The position numbers and the translations under genes are program-made. From a virus: DNA of 39,792 nucleotides. The stretch is from the IMG/VR virus record IMGVR_UViG_3300013767_000083, positions 1 through 39,792 of that record; one strand, 5' to 3'. The notes under the pieces are model-generated. The model searched no databases and was not told the DNA's origin. It saw only the letters and a list, made by a program, of their open reading frames with translations. This document shows, one piece after another, positions 9,560 to 14,334 of this stretch (positions are counted from its first letter, which is position 1; each line of letters begins with the position of its first letter).

Positions 9560-11632
9560 TCATTGAGGAATAGGTTCGAGTTCTGCCATCTGAGGCATGC
9601 CACCGGGTGGCAATTGCGGAGGCACAGGAGGGGAGCCAGGAACCTGCGTACCGGGAGGCCCGCCAAAGCCCGGCGGCGTTCCCAGCGCGTCGATTTGGGC
9701 CTTGAGCGCCATCACGTTGGCATTCATCTGCTGCATGAGCTGAATGACATTGATACCCGCGCCCACGGCCTCGATCTCGGCCTGCTCGGCTTGTGCCGTG
9801 AACAGCTTCGCCTGTGCCGCGCTCTTGTCTGCATCAGCCTTGGCCTTGGCGGCCTCTGCTACATCCTTGGGATTGGGCGGTGGCGGTGGAACGTCGGGCG
9901 CCTCGCCCGTGATCTGAGGTGGCATCGTGCGCTTGATGCGGGCTGCAATCTCCTCCGCTCCGGGGAAATCCATGTTCTTGATGACGAGGTCGCCAGCGAT
10001 ATCCGCGATTTTGGGATAGCTCCGCACCAGCTCCGTCATGTTCTGCGCTGCTTCCTGACGGCGGGTAGCGAAACTAGGTCCGGTAATGACCGTCACGTCG
10101 TACTCGCCGACGCTCAGATCATTCAGCATCTCCATGATCTGGCCGTCAGGACCCGCGAGCTGCTGATGGTTAGGTTGGTTGACGCCCACCATCTTATGGG
10201 TGCCGTCCTCGCCCAAGACGCGGACGATGCGGGCCGTGTCGTAGATCTTGGGAATCAGATCGACCAGAATCCTTCCGCAAAACTGGATGGCCGTTCCGAG
10301 GTTATCGACGTAGTTGAACGTCCCCGTATCAGCCTGAGCATTCCGGGCATTGATCGCTCGGCCGCTGGTCTCGTTCGACGGTGCTCCTAGCGAGACGTTA
10401 TAGACGCCCACGACAGCCTGTAGATCGGCGCCGGCAATCTGTGCCTGGCTATCCAGGCCCTGCTGGGCAAGGGCGGGTTGAGCACGCGTCGGCGCCCCTC
10501 CTCCCGCCGGATCGGGATTGAATGGCAGATAGGGATGGTTCTTGCTGCCCGCCGTCTTCCAGAAGCGCTCGAGCCCCTTGAACATCTTGACTGTGCCGAC
10601 CCACGGGGCCTTGGGCTGGAGAGCCGCAGCCTCAGCCGCCGCCGTACGCATATAGTTGTAGACGCGCTGCGGATCCTTGGCGTCCCGGATCATCCCGCGC
10701 CGGACAACACGACCCTCGATGAAGATTTCCTCGCCGATCACAGGGCAGATCGGGATGTACTTGCCCGCCCACTCGACTTCCTCGGTCAGGAACTCGCGCC
10801 CGCTCATCAGGCGCATGCAGACCTTGTGGGTTTCGACTTCTCGCTTCTGCTGAACGGTTACACCGGGGTGCGCCTTCTTGGGGTCGTCTAAAACCGACCC
10901 ATCGTCCATTAAGTACAGCGTCTTTTTGACCGGCTTCTTGTACCAGTACTCGGCAACCATGATCGATTGCATCGAGAACCAGGTGATCCCCTGGATCGCA
11001 TTGGGACCTGCCGGCATGCCCTCCGCGACCGCATCAGGCCAGCGCTGCCTGAACGTCTCTTTCGGGATCGGGAACAGGATGAAGACATAGCGCCCATCGG
11101 CCTTGTCGGGCTCGCGCGCCGCTGGGTCATAGAGAACCGCGAATGGATCGGGAATGCGCTCGACCCGGATATCCTGCTCGAAAGCATCGTCGGAACTGTA
11201 CTGCGTCTTAACCCGGAACGATCCCAATCCCGTCACGCAGGCATTCTCAAGGCCCTGTACGTAAGCCGCCTTGGCGTTGCTCTGCACCTCGATATTGCGG
11301 ATCAGGCCGTTGTAGATCTCCGCCACCTCCTCGCTGGCGCCGTCCTTAGCGGGTGCAACCTTGACTGATGGGGTGTTCTTACGAGCGTCGCCCGTGACCT
11401 GATGGATGAAGCCCGGCAGGCGATTGACTGTGATGACCGGCCGGTTGCTGTCCGTGCGCTCCTGTCGGGCATCGGGAAGCCACTGTTCGCCGGCATAAAA
11501 GCGCTGGTCATCGCGGCCGTTATCGAAATTCTCGCTCTCGGCCGTCCACGACTCGTTCGCACGCCGCATAGCGTATTGGAACGGATCGTCCTCCTCCGTC
11601 GAGTTCTCGATATCGCGGCCGGCGTTGGCCAT
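9560..11632 (-). CDS. Portal protein
   Basis: 690 aa. The N-terminal block FYAGEQWLPDARQERTDSNRPVITVNRLPGFIHQVTGDARKNTPSVKV is typical of podovirus portals, and the gene lies directly downstream of TerL. Confidence 0.85.
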   Translation of the reverse strand: MANAGRDIENSTEEDDPFQYAMRRANESWTAESENFDNGRDDQRFYAGEQWLPDARQERTDSNRPVITVNRLPGFIHQVTGDARKNTPSVKVAPAKDGASEEVAEIYNGLIRNIEVQSNAKAAYVQGLENACVTGLGSFRVKTQYSSDDAFEQDIRVERIPDPFAVLYDPAAREPDKADGRYVFILFPIPKETFRQRWPDAVAEGMPAGPNAIQGITWFSMQSIMVAEYWYKKPVKKTLYLMDDGSVLDDPKKAHPGVTVQQKREVETHKVCMRLMSGREFLTEEVEWAGKYIPICPVIGEEIFIEGRVVRRGMIRDAKDPQRVYNYMRTAAAEAAALQPKAPWVGTVKMFKGLERFWKTAGSKNHPYLPFNPDPAGGGAPTRAQPALAQQGLDSQAQIAGADLQAVVGVYNVSLGAPSNETSGRAINARNAQADTGTFNYVDNLGTAIQFCGRILVDLIPKIYDTARIVRVLGEDGTHKMVGVNQPNHQQLAGPDGQIMEMLNDLSVGEYDVTVITGPSFATRRQEAAQNMTELVRSYPKIADIAGDLVIKNMDFPGAEEIAARIKRTMPPQITGEAPDVPPPPPNPKDVAEAAKAKADADKSAAQAKLFTAQAEQAEIEAVGAGINVIQLMQQMNANVMALKAQIDALGTPPGFGGPPGTQVPGSPPVPPQLPPGGMPQMAELEPIPQ

Positions 11633-11633
11633 G

Positions 11634-11834
11634 TCAGGCGCTTACCGAAATGCCGGGATATCGCGACTTCACTTTGCGTCTGATGGTCGCTTGCTGGGCA
11701 GGAGACGCATACTCCGACCCGCGAGCGAGCGCGTTCGTCGCCCTATTGGCCGTGTCGAGCGGATACTTTCGCCCCGGTAGAGCGAATTGAGACGTTGCAG
11801 GCGCATTGCGGCGCTTCGAAGTAAGTTTTGCCAT
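11634..11834 (-). CDS. Small conserved phage protein between TerL and portal
   Basis: 66 aa from the ATG at 11834, with GGAG 9 nt upstream. Sequence starts MAKLTSKRRNAPATSQFALPGRKYPLDTANRATNALARG. Confidence 0.45.
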   Translation of the reverse strand: MAKLTSKRRNAPATSQFALPGRKYPLDTANRATNALARGSEYASPAQQATIRRKVKSRYPGISVSA

Positions 11835-11845
11835 CCATGTGACTC

Positions 11846-14041
11846 CTATGCGGACATCCAGCCGCCACGAACCTTGCCGTAGCGCTCTTCCTGTTCTCGG
11901 GCTTCGATTTCGGGTACTTCGTAGACCACGCACATCAGGCCGAAGGCATCGCTGTTATGGACGACGGCGCCGTTCGCAAGGGAGAAGCAGTGGCCGTCGG
12001 GGACAGTTATGTCCCAAACATCAGACGTTTCGCTTAGCCGCTTGACGCGCGCGATACGCGGCAGCCCATTCGTTCTGCTTTCCGCGAGCGCGATAAGCAG
12101 CGACCTTGCACTTTTGCGAACAGAATTTGCCGGCGTGGCCGCTCTTGCGGACCAAGGCCATATGGGGCTTCCCGCAATGTTCGCAGGGACGCTCTTCGCG
12201 CTTCCACTTTGTCCAACTCTTGGAACGTTTGGCGTGTCGCTTGTGCCACAGCCGGCCTTCAGGCGATCGATGCCAATCTGCTGCCTTGTCTCGCGCAGAT
12301 GCGGCGAACCAGCCACCTTCTGGGCGCTCTCGCTTAGCCCAAGATTCGGACAGATGGATACTGGCTGGGACGCACTCCAAATTTTCGAGTCGATTATTGA
12401 GTGTGTTTCCGTCCCGATGGTGGATGTGGCAGCCAGCGGGAACAGGCCCGAATGCAGCCGCCCAAGCATCTCGATGCAGCTTCTTCCCGCCTCGCGATAG
12501 ATACGCTTCACTCGGCCAAAGACGGTAAAGACCGCCGTCGAAATACTGCGTGATCTCGTCAAGGTAGATTGGATCACGGTATTCGGCGTCAGGGACGCCG
12601 CGGATTTCCACCCGTTCTCTGTCAAGAATAAATGATCCGGCGTGCATTTCACCGAATACCCGCCTGTGAACACCACCTCCACAAGTGGGGCATCCCGCCT
12701 CGTGATCCTTGGATAGATGTATCGCTTCCAGCCGCACGGAGTTAGAACCTCGCCTTCTTCAGGTAACTCCGATATGGGTTGCGTTCCGTAACGCGTCAAT
12801 ACTTCTGCGTGCGGATGGAAACATCCGTGACTTGACCAATCATGGTCTGGCCCTAATCCGATGTTGCGCGTCTCATCGCGCTTCTCGTGATACCAGCCGA
12901 GCGCTTCCAATCCGGGCTTGGTGGTCGCTTCGTTAAACCAGATTGATAGAAAGAGCCGGCGGGCGGCCTCGATGCGAGCAGCCGCGGCGCCCTTGCCCTG
13001 GTTCGGGACTACGGTGACCTCGTAGCCAGCTTCCCGAAGCGCGGACGCGTAGCTGACGTCATAGACCTTGTCGTTGCTGTCGCCGTCATGGGGTAACCAG
13101 AACTGCGCGCGGTTGGGCGTATAGTCCCGTTGGCGACACCATTCGAGATGGGCCCCCAACGGCTGGCCGACGGTCTCGTAGTAGTCCAGCACGCGAATTT
13201 CCCGGCCCACAAACTGTGCTACCCAGATCACGAAGGCATCGGCGCGGGCGCCCGTCCCGCCGATATCGACGAATAGGCGGATAGTCATCAGCGGATCGGC
13301 CGCTACATTGCCAATCCTGCCTTTAGCCTTGGCCTCCGCGAGGCAGCGTGCATAGTACGCACCCGCCAATACCGTGACGTATCCGCCTTCCCAGATATGA
13401 TCGTACTGCTCGGGATTATCCCTTAAGCAGTCCTGCCGCTCCCGTTCAAGGACGCTCGGGAACCAGGGATTGTCCGACCAGTTGGCCCTTACAACGATGG
13501 CGCCCGTGGGCAAATTCTTACCCTTGAACAGCATATCGACCGGATCGGTCTTACGACGCGAGTTCCACGAGAACCAAATCTCCGAGTCTTCCGCGCGGAT
13601 CGTTGGCCGCAACATATTCAGGGAACTCAACGATGCGGTCTGCGCCTCTTCCCACCACGCGCGCTTGAATTTCTCCAGCGACTTCACGGATTCAGCCGTG
13701 TAGTCCTGCATGCCCTTGAAGATGATGACGCCATCACGCGGCGTCTCGATCACGTCCTTGAAGACCTTGAAGCCGTCCGCTTGCCCCAAGCGATGGGTTG
13801 CGAGCTTGTCCTCGATCAATAGCTTCGCGCTCTGCGTCAGATCCTTCTGTACCTCACGGATACAGACCGATCGCAAGCCCTCGCCGCTGACGCCCGGCTC
13901 AGCAAGGCTGTCTTCGACCATCAGGTCGGCGAAGAAGTGGGATTTGCCAGAACCGCGACCGCCCCATGCCGCCTTGTAGCGAGCCGGCACCAGTAGCGGC
14001 TTGAACACCCGCGCTGTTGGGATATCGAGGACCGCGCTCAT
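11846..14041 (-). CDS. terL: Terminase large subunit, interrupted by an intein (about 441-aa extein plus 290-aa intein)
   Basis: Walker A motif WGGRGSGKSH, a PBSX/Terminase_3-like N-terminus, and the nuclease motif DHDWSSHG|..|SDAFGLM split by the intein. ATGA overlap with the upstream small gene. Confidence 0.9.
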   Translation of the reverse strand: MSAVLDIPTARVFKPLLVPARYKAAWGGRGSGKSHFFADLMVEDSLAEPGVSGEGLRSVCIREVQKDLTQSAKLLIEDKLATHRLGQADGFKVFKDVIETPRDGVIIFKGMQDYTAESVKSLEKFKRAWWEEAQTASLSSLNMLRPTIRAEDSEIWFSWNSRRKTDPVDMLFKGKNLPTGAIVVRANWSDNPWFPSVLERERQDCLRDNPEQYDHIWEGGYVTVLAGAYYARCLAEAKAKGRIGNVAADPLMTIRLFVDIGGTGARADAFVIWVAQFVGREIRVLDYYETVGQPLGAHLEWCRQRDYTPNRAQFWLPHDGDSNDKVYDVSYASALREAGYEVTVVPNQGKGAAAARIEAARRLFLSIWFNEATTKPGLEALGWYHEKRDETRNIGLGPDHDWSSHGCFHPHAEVLTRYGTQPISELPEEGEVLTPCGWKRYIYPRITRRDAPLVEVVFTGGYSVKCTPDHLFLTENGWKSAASLTPNTVIQSTLTRSRSISTAVFTVFGRVKRIYREAGRSCIEMLGRLHSGLFPLAATSTIGTETHSIIDSKIWSASQPVSICPNLGLSESAQKVAGSPHLRETRQQIGIDRLKAGCGTSDTPNVPRVGQSGSAKSVPANIAGSPIWPWSARAATPANSVRKSARSLLIALAESRTNGLPRIARVKRLSETSDVWDITVPDGHCFSLANGAVVHNSDAFGLMCVVYEVPEIEAREQEERYGKVRGGWMSA
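11954..12823 (-). mobile_element. Class-1 intein within terL (codons 407-696)
   Basis: Block A is CFHPHAEVLT (TGT at 12823-12821), block B is SVKCTPDHLFLTENGW, and blocks F/G are DVWDITVPDGHCFSLANGAVVHN followed by the +1 Ser. Confidence 0.85.
12021..12737 (-). CDS. HNH homing endonuclease ORF nested inside the intein, in a different frame from terL
   Basis: Motifs KKLHRDAWAAAFGPVPAGCHIHHRDGNTLNNRLENLECVPASIH and a C-terminal CEHCG...FCSQKC zinc ribbon. (14041-12737) mod 3 = 2. The true start is uncertain (track GTG at 12737, ATG at 12647). Confidence 0.7.
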   Translation of the reverse strand: MRLEAIHLSKDHEAGCPTCGGGVHRRVFGEMHAGSFILDRERVEIRGVPDAEYRDPIYLDEITQYFDGGLYRLWPSEAYLSRGGKKLHRDAWAAAFGPVPAGCHIHHRDGNTLNNRLENLECVPASIHLSESWAKRERPEGGWFAASARDKAADWHRSPEGRLWHKRHAKRSKSWTKWKREERPCEHCGKPHMALVRKSGHAGKFCSQKCKVAAYRARGKQNEWAAAYRARQAAKRNV

Positions 14042-14334
14042 TCGGCCTTCGGATCAAAGATGGAGCGGCGGATTTCGTGGATGACCCTAACGCCCGGATC
14101 GTCCGGGCCACCGCCGATGATCGCTTGAGCGGCCTTGCCATAGCCGCGATCTAGGAATTCCCTGGCCGCCGCGACGCGCGCGGCGTCGCTATCGCTACCC
14201 TCCATCACTGTTTTGAGCGTAGCAAGAGCGGCGGCCGTATATTCGCGAGCCAACTCCTTCAGCTCACGGGTAGCCTTATTGGGCGTGCCTTTCTTTCGGC
14301 CACCTCTGCGCTCTCCTGGTTTGGAGCCGCGCAT
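14038..14334 (-). CDS. Putative terminase small subunit or DNA-binding protein
   Basis: 98 aa with a basic N-terminus (GERRGGRKKGTPNK) followed by helices. The ATGA overlap onto the terL start suggests translational coupling. Confidence 0.4.
   Translation of the reverse strand: MRGSKPGERRGGRKKGTPNKATRELKELAREYTAAALATLKTVMEGSDSDAARVAAAREFLDRGYGKAAQAIIGGGPDDPGVRVIHEIRRSIFDPKAE

Follow-up and report, generated by a model that had tools for sequence, protein, structure and literature searches.

A phage terL intein that probably carries a separately translated HNH_3 endonuclease gene in its +2 frame

Introduction

Inteins are thought to have gained homing endonucleases when free-standing genes invaded mini-inteins. 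To our knowledge, intermediates of this acquisition are scarce. Inteins with the endonuclease in another frame or on the other strand have been published (Gorbalenya 1998, cited in bioRxiv 10.1101/2025.01.02.630785 and 10.64898/2026.09.14.751524; Gosselin 2025; Phillips 2026). The terL intein analysed here lies in the window, which is the whole 39,792-nucleotide stretch of IMG/VR virus record IMGVR_UViG_3300013767_000083. An earlier note on this DNA had held that the layout fits no known type, a view that these publications overturn.

In the account of Gosselin (2025), the actinophage "endonuclease VII-like" out-of-frame HENs occur in contiguous inteins, many of them in terL, as an ORF in frame 3 (+2) that encodes a His-Me-finger-type nuclease and is flanked by the splicing blocks, and the host frame is open and predicted to be unstructured. 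The window intein is like them in these respects. Their layout was read there as a free-standing HEG invading an intein. Unlike the HENs of that account, the nuclease here is HNH_3 / I-HmuI-like with a C-terminal zinc ribbon, its hosts are proteobacterial-type podoviruses and many other phyla, and the coding sequence of the N-terminal splicing domain contains a start codon, a Shine-Dalgarno (SD) sequence, a promoter-like element and about 50 codons of the nuclease. Homology between the two groups was considered and rejected: a tblastn search at E<=1e-3 matched 104 records of deposited phages, and the four named actinophages were absent among the 60 of these records listed.

A cyanobacterial dnaX intein carries a LAGLIDADG endonuclease in the +2 frame (Phillips, DeSimone & Gogarten, bioRxiv 10.64898/2026.09.14.751524), an ORF first noted by Gorbalenya (1998), as cited there. 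According to that preprint the dnaX intein is functional. Like the terL intein, it is sporadically distributed and has a +2 overlapping ORF that is under purifying selection in the endonuclease frame and relaxed in the host frame, and a secondary invasion of a mini-intein was proposed for it, as it is here. The two differ in the nuclease (HNH, not LAGLIDADG), in the host gene (phage terL, not cellular dnaX) and in the embedded expression signals, which are not known to be reported for the dnaX intein.

In fractured genes, a free-standing homing endonuclease gene stands between the halves of a split intein (Dassa et al. 2009, PMC2677866), and the order of parts (N-extein-IntN, endonuclease gene, IntC-C-extein) is the same as here. 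Fractured genes are interrupted and must trans-splice, whereas the host frame in the window is stop-free, so its intein is contiguous and predicted to splice in cis; the single open 731-codon terL ORF rules out a fractured gene or split intein for the window. ShiLan-type hidden HNH insertions in phage methylase genes (Arsenault et al. 2025, PMC11855218) also consist of a GTG-started out-of-frame HNH ORF in a host gene whose frame is open. Splicing domains are missing from ShiLan, and the insert is therefore believed to remain in the host protein, whereas here an intein surrounds the HNH ORF. A conserved SD precedes the start here, whereas ShiLan has no detectable RBS and leaderless initiation was proposed. 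I-HmuI and the free-standing phage HNH_3 enzymes share the HNH_3 catalytic core, and I-HmuI is the best, though weak, PDB fold match. These enzymes are intron-encoded or intergenic, whereas the nuclease here is intein-embedded and has an overprinted N-terminal extension and a zinc-ribbon tail.

Results

A contiguous class-1 intein in the large terminase gene

The terL precursor and its intein consist of the following parts.

11846..14041, minus strand: terL precursor ORF from the ORF list, 731 aa (406-aa N-extein, 290-aa intein, 35-aa C-extein)
11954..12823, minus strand: class-1 intein, 290 codons (Cys1, block B TPDH, block F DVWDITV, terminal VVHN, +1 Ser)
12557..12823, minus strand: N-terminal splicing domain with blocks A-B, intein codons 1-89 (AF2 models its HINT strands with confidence)
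12074..12556, minus strand: read-through linker, which is the HNH gene in its intein-frame reading (stop-free)
11954..12073, minus strand: C-terminal splicing domain, blocks F-G, ending in HN (tblastn frame match)

The precursor matches Terminase_3 of Pfam (E=8e-22) and belongs to a P22-like packaging module that is intact and continues directly downstream with the portal gene. It also matches Intein_splicing at 39.0 bits, above the curated cut-off of 35.8. Every splicing residue is present in the window. Cys1 (TGT, 12823-12821) directly follows ...DWSSHG and is Cys in 79/79 relatives, TPDH occupies intein residues 61-64, with T61 and H64 100% conserved in the alignment of relatives, and the C-terminal VVHN supplies the terminal His-Asn before the +1 Ser. 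At the listed junctions of relatives, the intein ends in HN and the next residue is S, C or T. The intein that the earlier note had recognised in terL by its blocks B and F is thus confirmed by the Pfam score and by the motifs read directly.

Without the intein, terL encodes 441 aa that are colinear with, and 64% identical to, gp16 of EBPR podovirus 2 (438 aa), the closest deposited phage terL found, which has neither intein nor HNH at the site. The spliced junction joins HDWSSHG to SDAFG in the window, compared with HDWSSHGADAFG in gp16. The predicted insertion point is the nuclease-domain motif HDWxSH/DAFR of phage large terminases, and protein splicing of the intein is predicted to rescue TerL.

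In the AF2 model of the intein, residues 1-89 (pLDDT 88-98) and 251-290 (pLDDT 85-98) form beta-strand halves, and residues 90-250 have a pLDDT of only 28-58; the HINT reading is taken from the model itself. A group I/II intron or other RNA element was rejected, as an Rfam scan of 11500..14300 at E<=0.1 was empty and the flanks are in-frame intein blocks.

An HNH_3 gene nested in the +2 frame

The second reading frame of the intein holds a complete ORF.

12021..12737, minus strand: nested HNH homing-endonuclease ORF, 238 aa, GTG start, TGA stop, in the intein frame +2 (equivalently -1)
12354..12485, minus strand: HNH catalytic core, residues 85-128, LHRDAW...GCHIHHRDGNTLNNRLENLEC...H (the Pfam HNH_3 stretch)
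12108..12185, minus strand: C-terminal four-Cys zinc ribbon, C185, C188, C206 and C210 (all four invariant in the alignment)

An out-of-frame HNH ORF with these ends, an offset of 2 and a C-terminal zinc ribbon had been described in the earlier note, and the identical ORF is in the list. The HNH HMM check that was named there gives a significant result: residues 85-128 match Pfam HNH_3 at 60.8 bits (cut-off 24.8, E=1e-16). The ORF also matches phrog_15471 of PHROGs, an HNH endonuclease family (E=1e-21). H88, H104, H106, H107, D109, N114, N115, N119, C122 and H128 are invariant in 39 HNH sequences. The homologues form 243 protein clusters, and the best 120 of the 243 are 188-317 aa long, most of them 220-241 aa and many exactly 238 aa. 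The stop codon TGA (12023..12021) overlaps 'tcT GAt', where the Asp codon opens block F (DVWDITV).

The AF2 model of the HNH protein has a mean pLDDT of 80, with low values in the first 30 residues (45-63). In a Foldseek comparison with PDB folds, the best match was I-HmuI (1u3e; probability 0.94), a weak match with E=0.07 and TM 0.25-0.32. The zinc ribbon gives a weak YacG-like fold match, and one source labels a homologue 'YacG/DUF329'. A PDB sequence-profile search with the HNH family had no endonuclease among its matches and was uninformative. The nested endonuclease is predicted to belong to the I-HmuI-like HNH_3 homing family.

The layout is kept among relatives

In 89 of 90 close relatives compared by tblastn (89 correspond to 80 non-redundant loci), the intein halves lie in one frame and the HNH always lies at +2. 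In L090, a decayed prophage copy, both frames are lost. The check on relatives named in the earlier note gave no relative with the HNH in the intein frame (80/80 non-redundant loci are +2). The +2 layout is also present in 17 distant MAG loci, all nine of those scanned having a long frame with terminase and Hint domains, and in the three cultured phages checked, TJE1, phiCDHM19 and LS06-2018-MD07. Distant nested relatives carry a separate SD and start for the HNH, placed directly behind block B.

Other homologues are arranged differently. In L103, a Syntrophomonas MAG, an HNH homologue 40% identical to that of the window lies between the halves of a split terL intein, and these halves, unlike those of the window, are on separate ORFs as in fractured genes; L102 and L107 have the same split-intein pattern. 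Among free-standing homologues, the HNH lies between terL and the next structural gene in PAE1 and SN1, upstream of terS in BP10, and between terL and the portal gene in PhiSTP1; those in T7-like and other phages are annotated as HNH homing endonucleases. Judged by sequence, three states of a single HNH family exist: on its own next to terL, flanked by the two halves of a split intein, and inside an uninterrupted one.

The host terL genes of the element belong to three Pfam terminase families. Pairwise conservation is 66% for the splicing domain, 54% for the HNH and 35% for the N-extein. Gene callers pick the HNH ORF and drop or truncate terL, and no terL was called in L001, L005 and L007. In the deposited records of the three cultured phages, terL is annotated as 680-800 aa and the intein and nuclease are unmentioned. 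Public data therefore mis-annotate the terminase as well as the endonuclease.

The intein frame stays open across the HNH gene

The read-through stretch is Ser-rich (14.6% versus 5.7% in the extein). Identity among relatives over the linker is 26-54% in the intein frame versus 49-80% in the HNH frame. In 79 relatives, the third position of intein codons is the most variable in the N-terminal splicing domain, and variation over HNH-frame codons 90-259, numbered from the intein start, peaks at the third position of HNH codons. Constraint thus moves from the intein frame to the HNH frame in the codon-position comparison that the earlier note had named, and this switch indicates that the linker is only the HNH gene in the other frame, free of stops. 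A functional linker domain in the intein frame is ruled out by the lack of a confident AF2 fold, the low identity and the wrong-frame periodicity. That the stretch has no folded domain and no stop codon had been noticed before, and both observations stand.

The open frame of the window is weak evidence alone, as the earlier note had cautioned: when the synonymous codons of its HNH ORF are shuffled, 1.29 stops are expected and P(no stop)=0.15. The comparison across relatives is decisive. No intein-frame stop was found in any of the 80 non-redundant relatives (GC 34% to 62%), versus about 125 expected in total, or about 1.6 per locus by synonymous shuffling. The third frame has 4-29 stops, as expected. 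Contexts prone to stops are absent in the relatives (NTG before A 0/180, NTA before A/G 0/732, Met before A 0/74), and the avoidance of NTG and NTA is confined to contexts that would make an intein-frame stop. Free-standing homologues have 4, 1, 12 and 10 stops in the frame used by the intein. Because there is no stop, ribosomes on terL can pass through the HNH gene in frame 0. The splicing blocks are under selection in the intein frame, the centre in the HNH frame, and an overlap of about 50 codons in both.

A dual-coding zone with putative embedded expression signals

Three further elements lie within the coding sequence of the N-terminal splicing domain.

12557..12737, minus strand: dual-coding zone with frozen synonymous sites, about 60 N-terminal HNH codons (MRLEA..CPTCGG..RR..GEMHAGSF..RVEIR) over intein codons 29-89
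12748..12754, minus strand: Shine-Dalgarno-like GGCGAGG, 10 nt upstream of the GTG, doubling as intein codons G24-E25-V26
12771..12799, minus strand: promoter-like element in intein codons 9-18 (-35 TTGACG 12799-12794, 17-nt spacer, -10 CATATC 12776-12771)

In the dual-coding zone, synonymous sites of the intein are frozen: Leu47 is CTT in 75/75, Asn44 AAT in 61/61, Pro62 CCG in 72/72, Asp63 GAT in 65/65 and Thr61 ACG in 77/79. The HNH-frame residues that result are C (100%), C (99%), G (100%), R (99%) and I (99%), and several HNH-frame residues in this zone are more conserved than the intein residue sharing their bases. HNH-frame stops are common in relatives before intein codon 25, and none occurs after codon 36. 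Free-standing and distantly nested HNH homologues begin about 55 residues later. Only where the HNH ORF overlaps the splicing domain, over roughly 50 codons at its N-terminal end, is there true overprinting.

GGAG or GAGG lies 5-20 nt upstream of the HNH start in 63/79 relatives, versus a background of 8.8%. The start at the homologous site is ATG in 66/79 relatives and GTG in two more (68/79), and the loci without the ATG also lack GGnGAGG and intein Cys30. The promoter-like element has the family consensus TTGACr-N17-(G/C/T)ATAAT. Criteria of a sigma-70 scan were passed at this position by 62/79 relatives, versus 0.005 expected, and L001 scored 10/12. The same scan gave no pass in the window, where the -10 is degenerate, and the promoter inference rests on the relatives, not on the window copy.

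The signals of the window copy are weaker than those of the family, with GTG instead of ATG, GGCGAGG as SD and CATATC as -10. A second in-frame ATG ('GEM', intein nt 176) is unlikely to be the true start: its sole SD-like sequence is GGTG 2 nt upstream, and in every locus the HNH frame is open and its residues are conserved from nt 86-107 on. The promoter spacer (GACGCGTTAC and GGAACGTGTC) was also considered as an RNA hairpin or operator, and this was rejected: in the alignment, inspected by eye, conservation is confined to the inner CGTT/AACG and the outer pairs show no covariation.

Discussion

We consider it very probable that the locus is a composite mobile element, in which a contiguous class-1 terL intein holds a complete, separately translated HNH_3 gene nested in its +2 frame. 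The layout might instead come from an assembly or sequencing error, or from two compensating indels, as the earlier note had proposed, that displaced the HNH of an in-frame HNH-intein and left a frame open by accident of high GC. The window taken singly would allow this, as its open frame is insignificant and it holds many long shadow ORFs. However, the identical frame relation recurs in the 89 independent close relatives, which come from different samples, in about 20 distant relatives and in cultured phages. Stops are absent from the intein frame in all 80 non-redundant loci, down to 34% GC, the HNH ORF has its own conserved start and SD, and none of the best 120 of the 243 HNH clusters is long enough for an in-frame fusion. 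This explanation is refuted as an artefact and is almost certainly wrong. Translational recoding, another reading of that note, would mean programmed -1 frameshifting, in which ribosomes on terL slip and give a TerL(N)-IntN-HNH fusion ending at the TGA before block F. The HNH frame is indeed -1 to the intein frame, and in the window it is open from intein codon 22. But in a scan of 79 loci for a conserved slippery heptamer (X_XXY_YYZ) none was conserved, the maximum being 6/79 at one position. In most relatives, moreover, stops close the HNH frame just upstream of the conserved SD and ATG, which is the signature of initiation and not of slippage, and the SD and start of distant nested relatives directly follow block B. 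Frameshifting is therefore highly improbable.

HNH proteins are an established class of packaging cofactors. The free-standing relatives always adjoin terS or terL, so the nested HNH is conceivably a packaging-related accessory nuclease that is not, or no longer, homing and is kept by terL for co-expression. Against this stand the domain, which is HNH_3, a family of free-standing phage homing endonucleases, with I-HmuI as the best fold match, and the element itself, which is more conserved than its host genes and occurs in three terminase families. EBPR podovirus 2 has neither intein nor HNH at the site, so an essential packaging role is doubtful, and we regard this explanation as unlikely. 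That the element is a decaying relic, with intein splicing lost or the HNH a pseudogene, is very unlikely: the window keeps all splicing residues and all invariant HNH residues, purifying selection is seen in both frames across the family, and terL is essential and here lies in an intact packaging module, although the GTG start and degenerate -10 hexamer of the window, and the clearly decayed relative L090, would fit decay.

In the composite element, read-through of the HNH gene yields an unfolded linker of about 160 residues, placed at the usual loop of intein endonuclease domains, and removal of the intein restores the 441-aa TerL colinear with intein-less homologues. The earlier note had also considered an endonuclease gene overprinted on the linker of a mini-intein. 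A gene nested on the linker is retained from that reading, and overprinting of the centre is not, because there a pre-existing HNH gene is passed through in a stop-free second frame. The HNH protein would arise by independent initiation at the SD and GTG (12754-12735), which lie within the region coding for the N-terminal splicing domain. The sigma-70-like promoter would, in most relatives, additionally give it a transcript of its own, separate from the late transcription of terL; in the window, expression of the HNH may be poor or depend on the terL transcript alone. The HNH protein may be a site-specific homing enzyme, which would cut or nick the conserved motif in terL alleles that co-infecting phages carry without the intein, and the subsequent repair would copy the intein and the HNH gene together.

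There is about an even chance that the N-terminal HINT coding sequence is a complete, terL-independent expression cassette for the nested endonuclease, with candidate promoter, SD, start and N-terminal extension. Such a cassette would comprise the sigma-70-type promoter in intein codons 9-18, the SD in codons 24-26, an HNH start codon that would dictate intein residue 30 (Cys or Trp), and an N-terminal HNH extension of about 50 residues, probably newly born by overprinting, with an invariant CxxC and a beta-hairpin and apparently under purifying selection in both frames. Neither transcription nor translation of the selfish nuclease would then depend on the late terL message. The overlap zone offers a clean example of selection for two proteins on the same bases, and their relative age is known.

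Inteins of this type are rare and already described; what is new here is an HNH_3 family member with putative embedded expression signals. The HNH-terL intein family provides hundreds of sequenced examples of an intermediate state, nested yet unfused. It adds free-standing and split-intein homologues, together with codon-level signs of a minimal host-frame constraint ("no stops"). If this reading is true, the three HNH states would form a testable series for the acquisition of endonucleases by inteins.

A nested HNH ORF in the terL intein

The large terminase gene (terL) of the window is interrupted by an intein, and an HNH ORF lies inside this intein in a different frame. The features of the region are:

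14041..11846 (-), terL, a single 731-codon ORF by ORF listing
12823..11954 (-), intein, 290 codons, placed by reading the sequence
12737..12021 (-), HNH ORF, 238 codons with a GTG start, nested within the terL ORF
12635-12657 (-), terminator-like hairpin (2124-2146 in the related locus L001)
9560-11632 (-), P22-like portal gene, beginning about 210 nt past the terL end

A profile search matched the terL ORF to Terminase_3 and Intein_splicing. Cys1 of the intein directly follows ...HDWSSHG, blocks B and F read TPDH and DVWDITV, and the C-terminus is VVHN followed by Ser. TerL without the intein is 441 aa long and colinear with the intein-less EBPR podovirus 2 gp16 (64% identity), the spliced junction being HDWSSHG|SDAFG in the window versus HDWSSHGADAFG in gp16. 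The locus is a P22-like / EBPR-podovirus-2-like packaging module. A 98-aa ORF (14038-14334, -) without Pfam match, whose end overlaps the terL start by 4 nt, could be the small terminase, judged from its position.

The HNH ORF is in the +2 frame relative to the intein, and its TGA stop overlaps the first codon of block F, which encodes Asp. Its product was taken for an HNH endonuclease in the earlier note, and the profile matches to HNH_3 (60.8 bits, cut-off 24.8, E=1e-16) and to an HNH PHROG (E=1e-21) are significant. ORF listing, domain matches and motif reading also agreed with the coordinates and description of the nested ORF in that note.

Frame usage across the intein

The codon positions of both frames were compared in a codon alignment of 79 relatives, which gave a clean switch from the intein frame to the HNH frame. 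The intein third position varies most in intein codons 1-70, and roughly between codons 90 and 260 the most variable one is the HNH third position. Relatives share 49-80% identity when compared in the HNH frame, but only 26-54% in the intein frame. In the AlphaFold2 model of the intein-frame product, the two HINT halves have pLDDT of 88-98 and 85-98, and the 160 residues joining them have pLDDT of 28-58, consistent with the earlier remark that the read-through stretch looks like no folded domain. The HNH-frame product was modelled with a mean pLDDT of 80, and among PDB structures it is best matched by the homing endonuclease I-HmuI (probability 0.94, but E=0.07). The low intein-frame identity, the periodicity switch and the models therefore indicate that the Ser/Thr/Arg-rich linker is an alternative-frame reading of the HNH gene, with stop avoidance as the only constraint on the intein frame.

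Openness of the intein frame in relatives

The HNH protein search gave 243 clusters, and the best 120 of them showed 56-84% identity and lengths of 188-317 aa; most have 220-241 aa, and exactly 238 aa is a frequent length. At least 490 loci were found in IMG/VR and 32 more in genome assemblies. Both intein halves and the HNH were placed by tblastn in 89 close relatives (80 non-redundant, 34-62% GC). No intein-frame stop occurs across the 483-735-nt insert in any of them, and the third frame contains 4-29 stops, in line with the shuffled expectation. Because the loci were retrieved by HNH similarity only, there is no sampling bias toward open frames. For the window alone, synonymous-codon permutation in the HNH ORF predicts 1.29 stops and leaves the frame open with a probability of 15%, which bears out the earlier caution that an open frame by itself is weak evidence.

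The codon contexts that would create intein-frame stops are absent: Leu/Val NTG before an A-starting codon (0/180, versus 27% in other contexts), NTA codons before A or G (0/732 versus 20%) and Met before an A-starting codon (0/74 versus 25% in control genes). Four free-standing homologues have 4, 1, 12 and 10 stops in the frame used by the intein. At 1800-3750 of L090 (an Acidobacteriaceae MAG, 305-kb contig), terL is split into several ORFs, 4 stops interrupt the intein frame and a frameshift disrupts the HNH, so that both frames are lost. This decayed prophage copy is a natural control for the closing of both frames without selection. These comparisons show that host-frame openness is under selection.

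The HNH homologues P0045, P0046, P0061 and P0094 have the C-terminal CxxC...CxxxC zinc-ribbon module in one or two additional copies. In relatives with such extra modules the longer insert (735 nt in the locus L057) keeps the intein frame open.

Start of the HNH ORF and dual coding

At the GTG site of the window (intein nt 86), 66 of the 79 relatives have ATG, two loci including the window have GTG, and the remaining loci have an ATG 6-21 nt downstream. GGAG or GAGG is present 5-20 nt upstream of the start in 63/79 (8.8% background), and the same bases encode the intein tripeptide G-E-V; in the window the Shine-Dalgarno motif is at 12754-12748. Intein residue 30 is limited to Cys or Trp by the HNH start codon; where the ATG is missing, this position holds other residues and GGnGAGG is lacking too. 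HNH-frame stops are found in up to 27/79 loci per column in intein codons 2-24, and none is found beyond codon 36.

Three other explanations of the layout can be weighed against these data. Two compensating indels in an in-frame HNH intein, as the earlier note considered, are excluded since all 89 close relatives have the intein halves in one frame and the HNH at +2. The identical frame relation and the lack of intein-frame stops in relatives also exclude sequencing error. Translational recoding, the third possibility, did not hold up: a scan of the relatives found no conserved slippery heptamer, and this result, together with the conserved start, the ribosome-binding site and the distribution of stops, supports internal initiation rather than frameshifting.

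Past the HNH start, synonymous sites of the intein are frozen across the GC range (Asn44 AAT 61/61, Leu47 CTT 75/75, Pro62 CCG 72/72, Asp63 GAT 65/65), which holds the HNH-frame residues C-P-T-C-G-G...R-R...G-E-M-x-A-G-S-F...R-V-E-I-R near-invariant. In the overlap, conservation of several HNH-frame residues exceeds that of the intein residue encoded by these bases. PAE1 Orf3 and other free-standing homologues have their first residue near position 55 of the window HNH ORF, and distant nested homologues start just past block B, each behind a ribosome-binding site of its own (AAAGGAG-N8-GTG in phiCDHM19, GGAGGG-ATG in LS06). From these later starts, the N-terminal extension of about 50 residues, partly a beta-hairpin in the AlphaFold2 model, appears to be derived and overprinted on the HINT domain.

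The terminator-like hairpin in block B, ATTCGGTG-AAATGCA-CGCCGGAT followed by a T-rich run, is conserved, and its loop contains the HNH ORF's second in-frame ATG ('GEM'). The hairpin may have arisen as a side effect of dual coding or may act as a regulatory RNA structure.

A promoter-like element in the splicing domain

Unexpected synonymous conservation was observed in intein codons 9-18 (Arg11 CGT 67/70, Gly13 GGA 69/78, Ile17 ATA 66/73), where the nucleotide consensus is TTGACr-N17-(G/C/T)ATAAT. The sigma-70 scan criteria hold at this position in 62/79 loci, versus 0.005 expected. The relative L001, for one, reads TTGACG-N17-GATAAT at 1982-2010. The window, with CATATC as its -10 hexamer, is among the 17 loci without a good -10. 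We have moderate confidence in a putative sigma-70-like promoter embedded in the N-terminal splicing domain.

The 17-nt spacer between -35 and -10 (window 12777-12793; CGTtaCGGAAcG... in the consensus of 79 relatives) is conserved beyond promoter needs and belongs to an imperfect palindrome, GACGCGTTAC|GGAACGTGTC, whose outer pairs showed no co-variation in the 79-relative consensus alignment; this conserved spacer could be an operator. An antisense shadow ORF over intein block A (...AFRNASIL...; window 12709-12936, +; L001 1680-2045, -) is open in several relatives and at times picked by gene callers, and is probably non-coding because the conserved bases lack antisense codon periodicity.

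Three architectural states and spread

Members of the HNH family at 30-45% identity occur in three states. The HNH is free-standing beside terminase genes in PAE1 and SN1 (between terL and the next structural gene), BP10 (upstream of terS) and PhiSTP1 (between terL and the portal gene). The second state, with the HNH flanked by the two parts of a split terL intein, is seen in the Syntrophomonas MAG locus L103 (294-2619), where TerL-N plus IntN stops at 1766, an HNH 40% identical to that of the window occupies 1803-2456, and a different frame then encodes IntC plus the C-extein (...LIVHN|SIDAARY). Such a terL corresponds to the "fractured gene" of Dassa 2009, and L102 and L107 share the pattern. 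A further 17 MAG loci, spread over many phyla, and the cultured phages TJE1, phiCDHM19 and LS06-2018-MD07 have the HNH +2 nested in contiguous terL inteins; the host TerLs are of the Terminase_3, Terminase_6 and T7-type families.

Median identity among close relatives is 66% for the splicing domain, 54% for the HNH and 35% for the N-extein. Extein junctions (L007-L080) place the element at four or more neighbouring sites of the TerL HDWxSH/DAFR motif, HDW|CSH.., HDWS|SH.., HDWSSH|[CS]ADA.. and HDWSSHG|SDAF..., which suggests homing-site slippage or repeated ectopic insertion. An element more conserved than the N-extein, with several insertion points, fits horizontal spread by homing, which would be directed into the conserved nuclease-motif target of TerL.

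Comparison with known inteins

The earlier note held that the layout fits no known type, which is incorrect because out-of-frame intein endonucleases have been published. Inteins with an endonuclease in another frame or strand are known but rare (Gorbalenya 1998, as cited in bioRxiv 10.1101/2025.01.02.630785 and 10.64898/2026.09.14.751524). Actinophage inteins, many in terL, contain antisense LAGLIDADG HENs, antisense VSR-like HENs and a frame-3 "endonuclease VII-like" HEN (Gosselin, Arsenault & Gogarten, bioRxiv 10.1101/2025.01.02.630785), and invasion by a free-standing HEG was proposed there as the origin of such inteins. Phillips et al. (bioRxiv 10.64898/2026.09.14.751524) demonstrate a +2 LAGLIDADG ORF with frame-specific dN/dS in a cyanobacterial dnaX intein, and out-of-frame hidden HNH inserts without inteins have also been reported (Arsenault et al. 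2025, PMC11855218).

The secondary ORFs of the actinophage inteins are stated by Gosselin et al. to lie typically outside the splicing domain, whereas the start, ribosome-binding site, promoter-like element and about 50 codons lie inside it in the window family; this placement appears to be new. No description of this particular HNH family was found in the open-access literature. HNH_3 as an out-of-frame intein endonuclease, its very wide distribution and the three architectural states of one endonuclease family also appear to be new.

The nested HNH in the terL intein is real, functional-looking and under selection, and is best classed with the already published non-canonical inteins whose endonuclease is out of frame. 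Confidence is high for the nested architecture and independent HNH translation; intein splicing, nuclease specificity and homing we only infer.

Public gene calls for L001, L005 and L007 picked the HNH ORF and left terL uncalled, and GenBank records of TJE1, phiCDHM19 and LS06-2018-MD07 annotate a 680-800-aa terL with the intein and nested nuclease unmentioned. The annotation gap for this architecture in public data is systematic. The HNH_3/terL-intein family provides an unusually rich and well-controlled data set on how inteins gain endonucleases.
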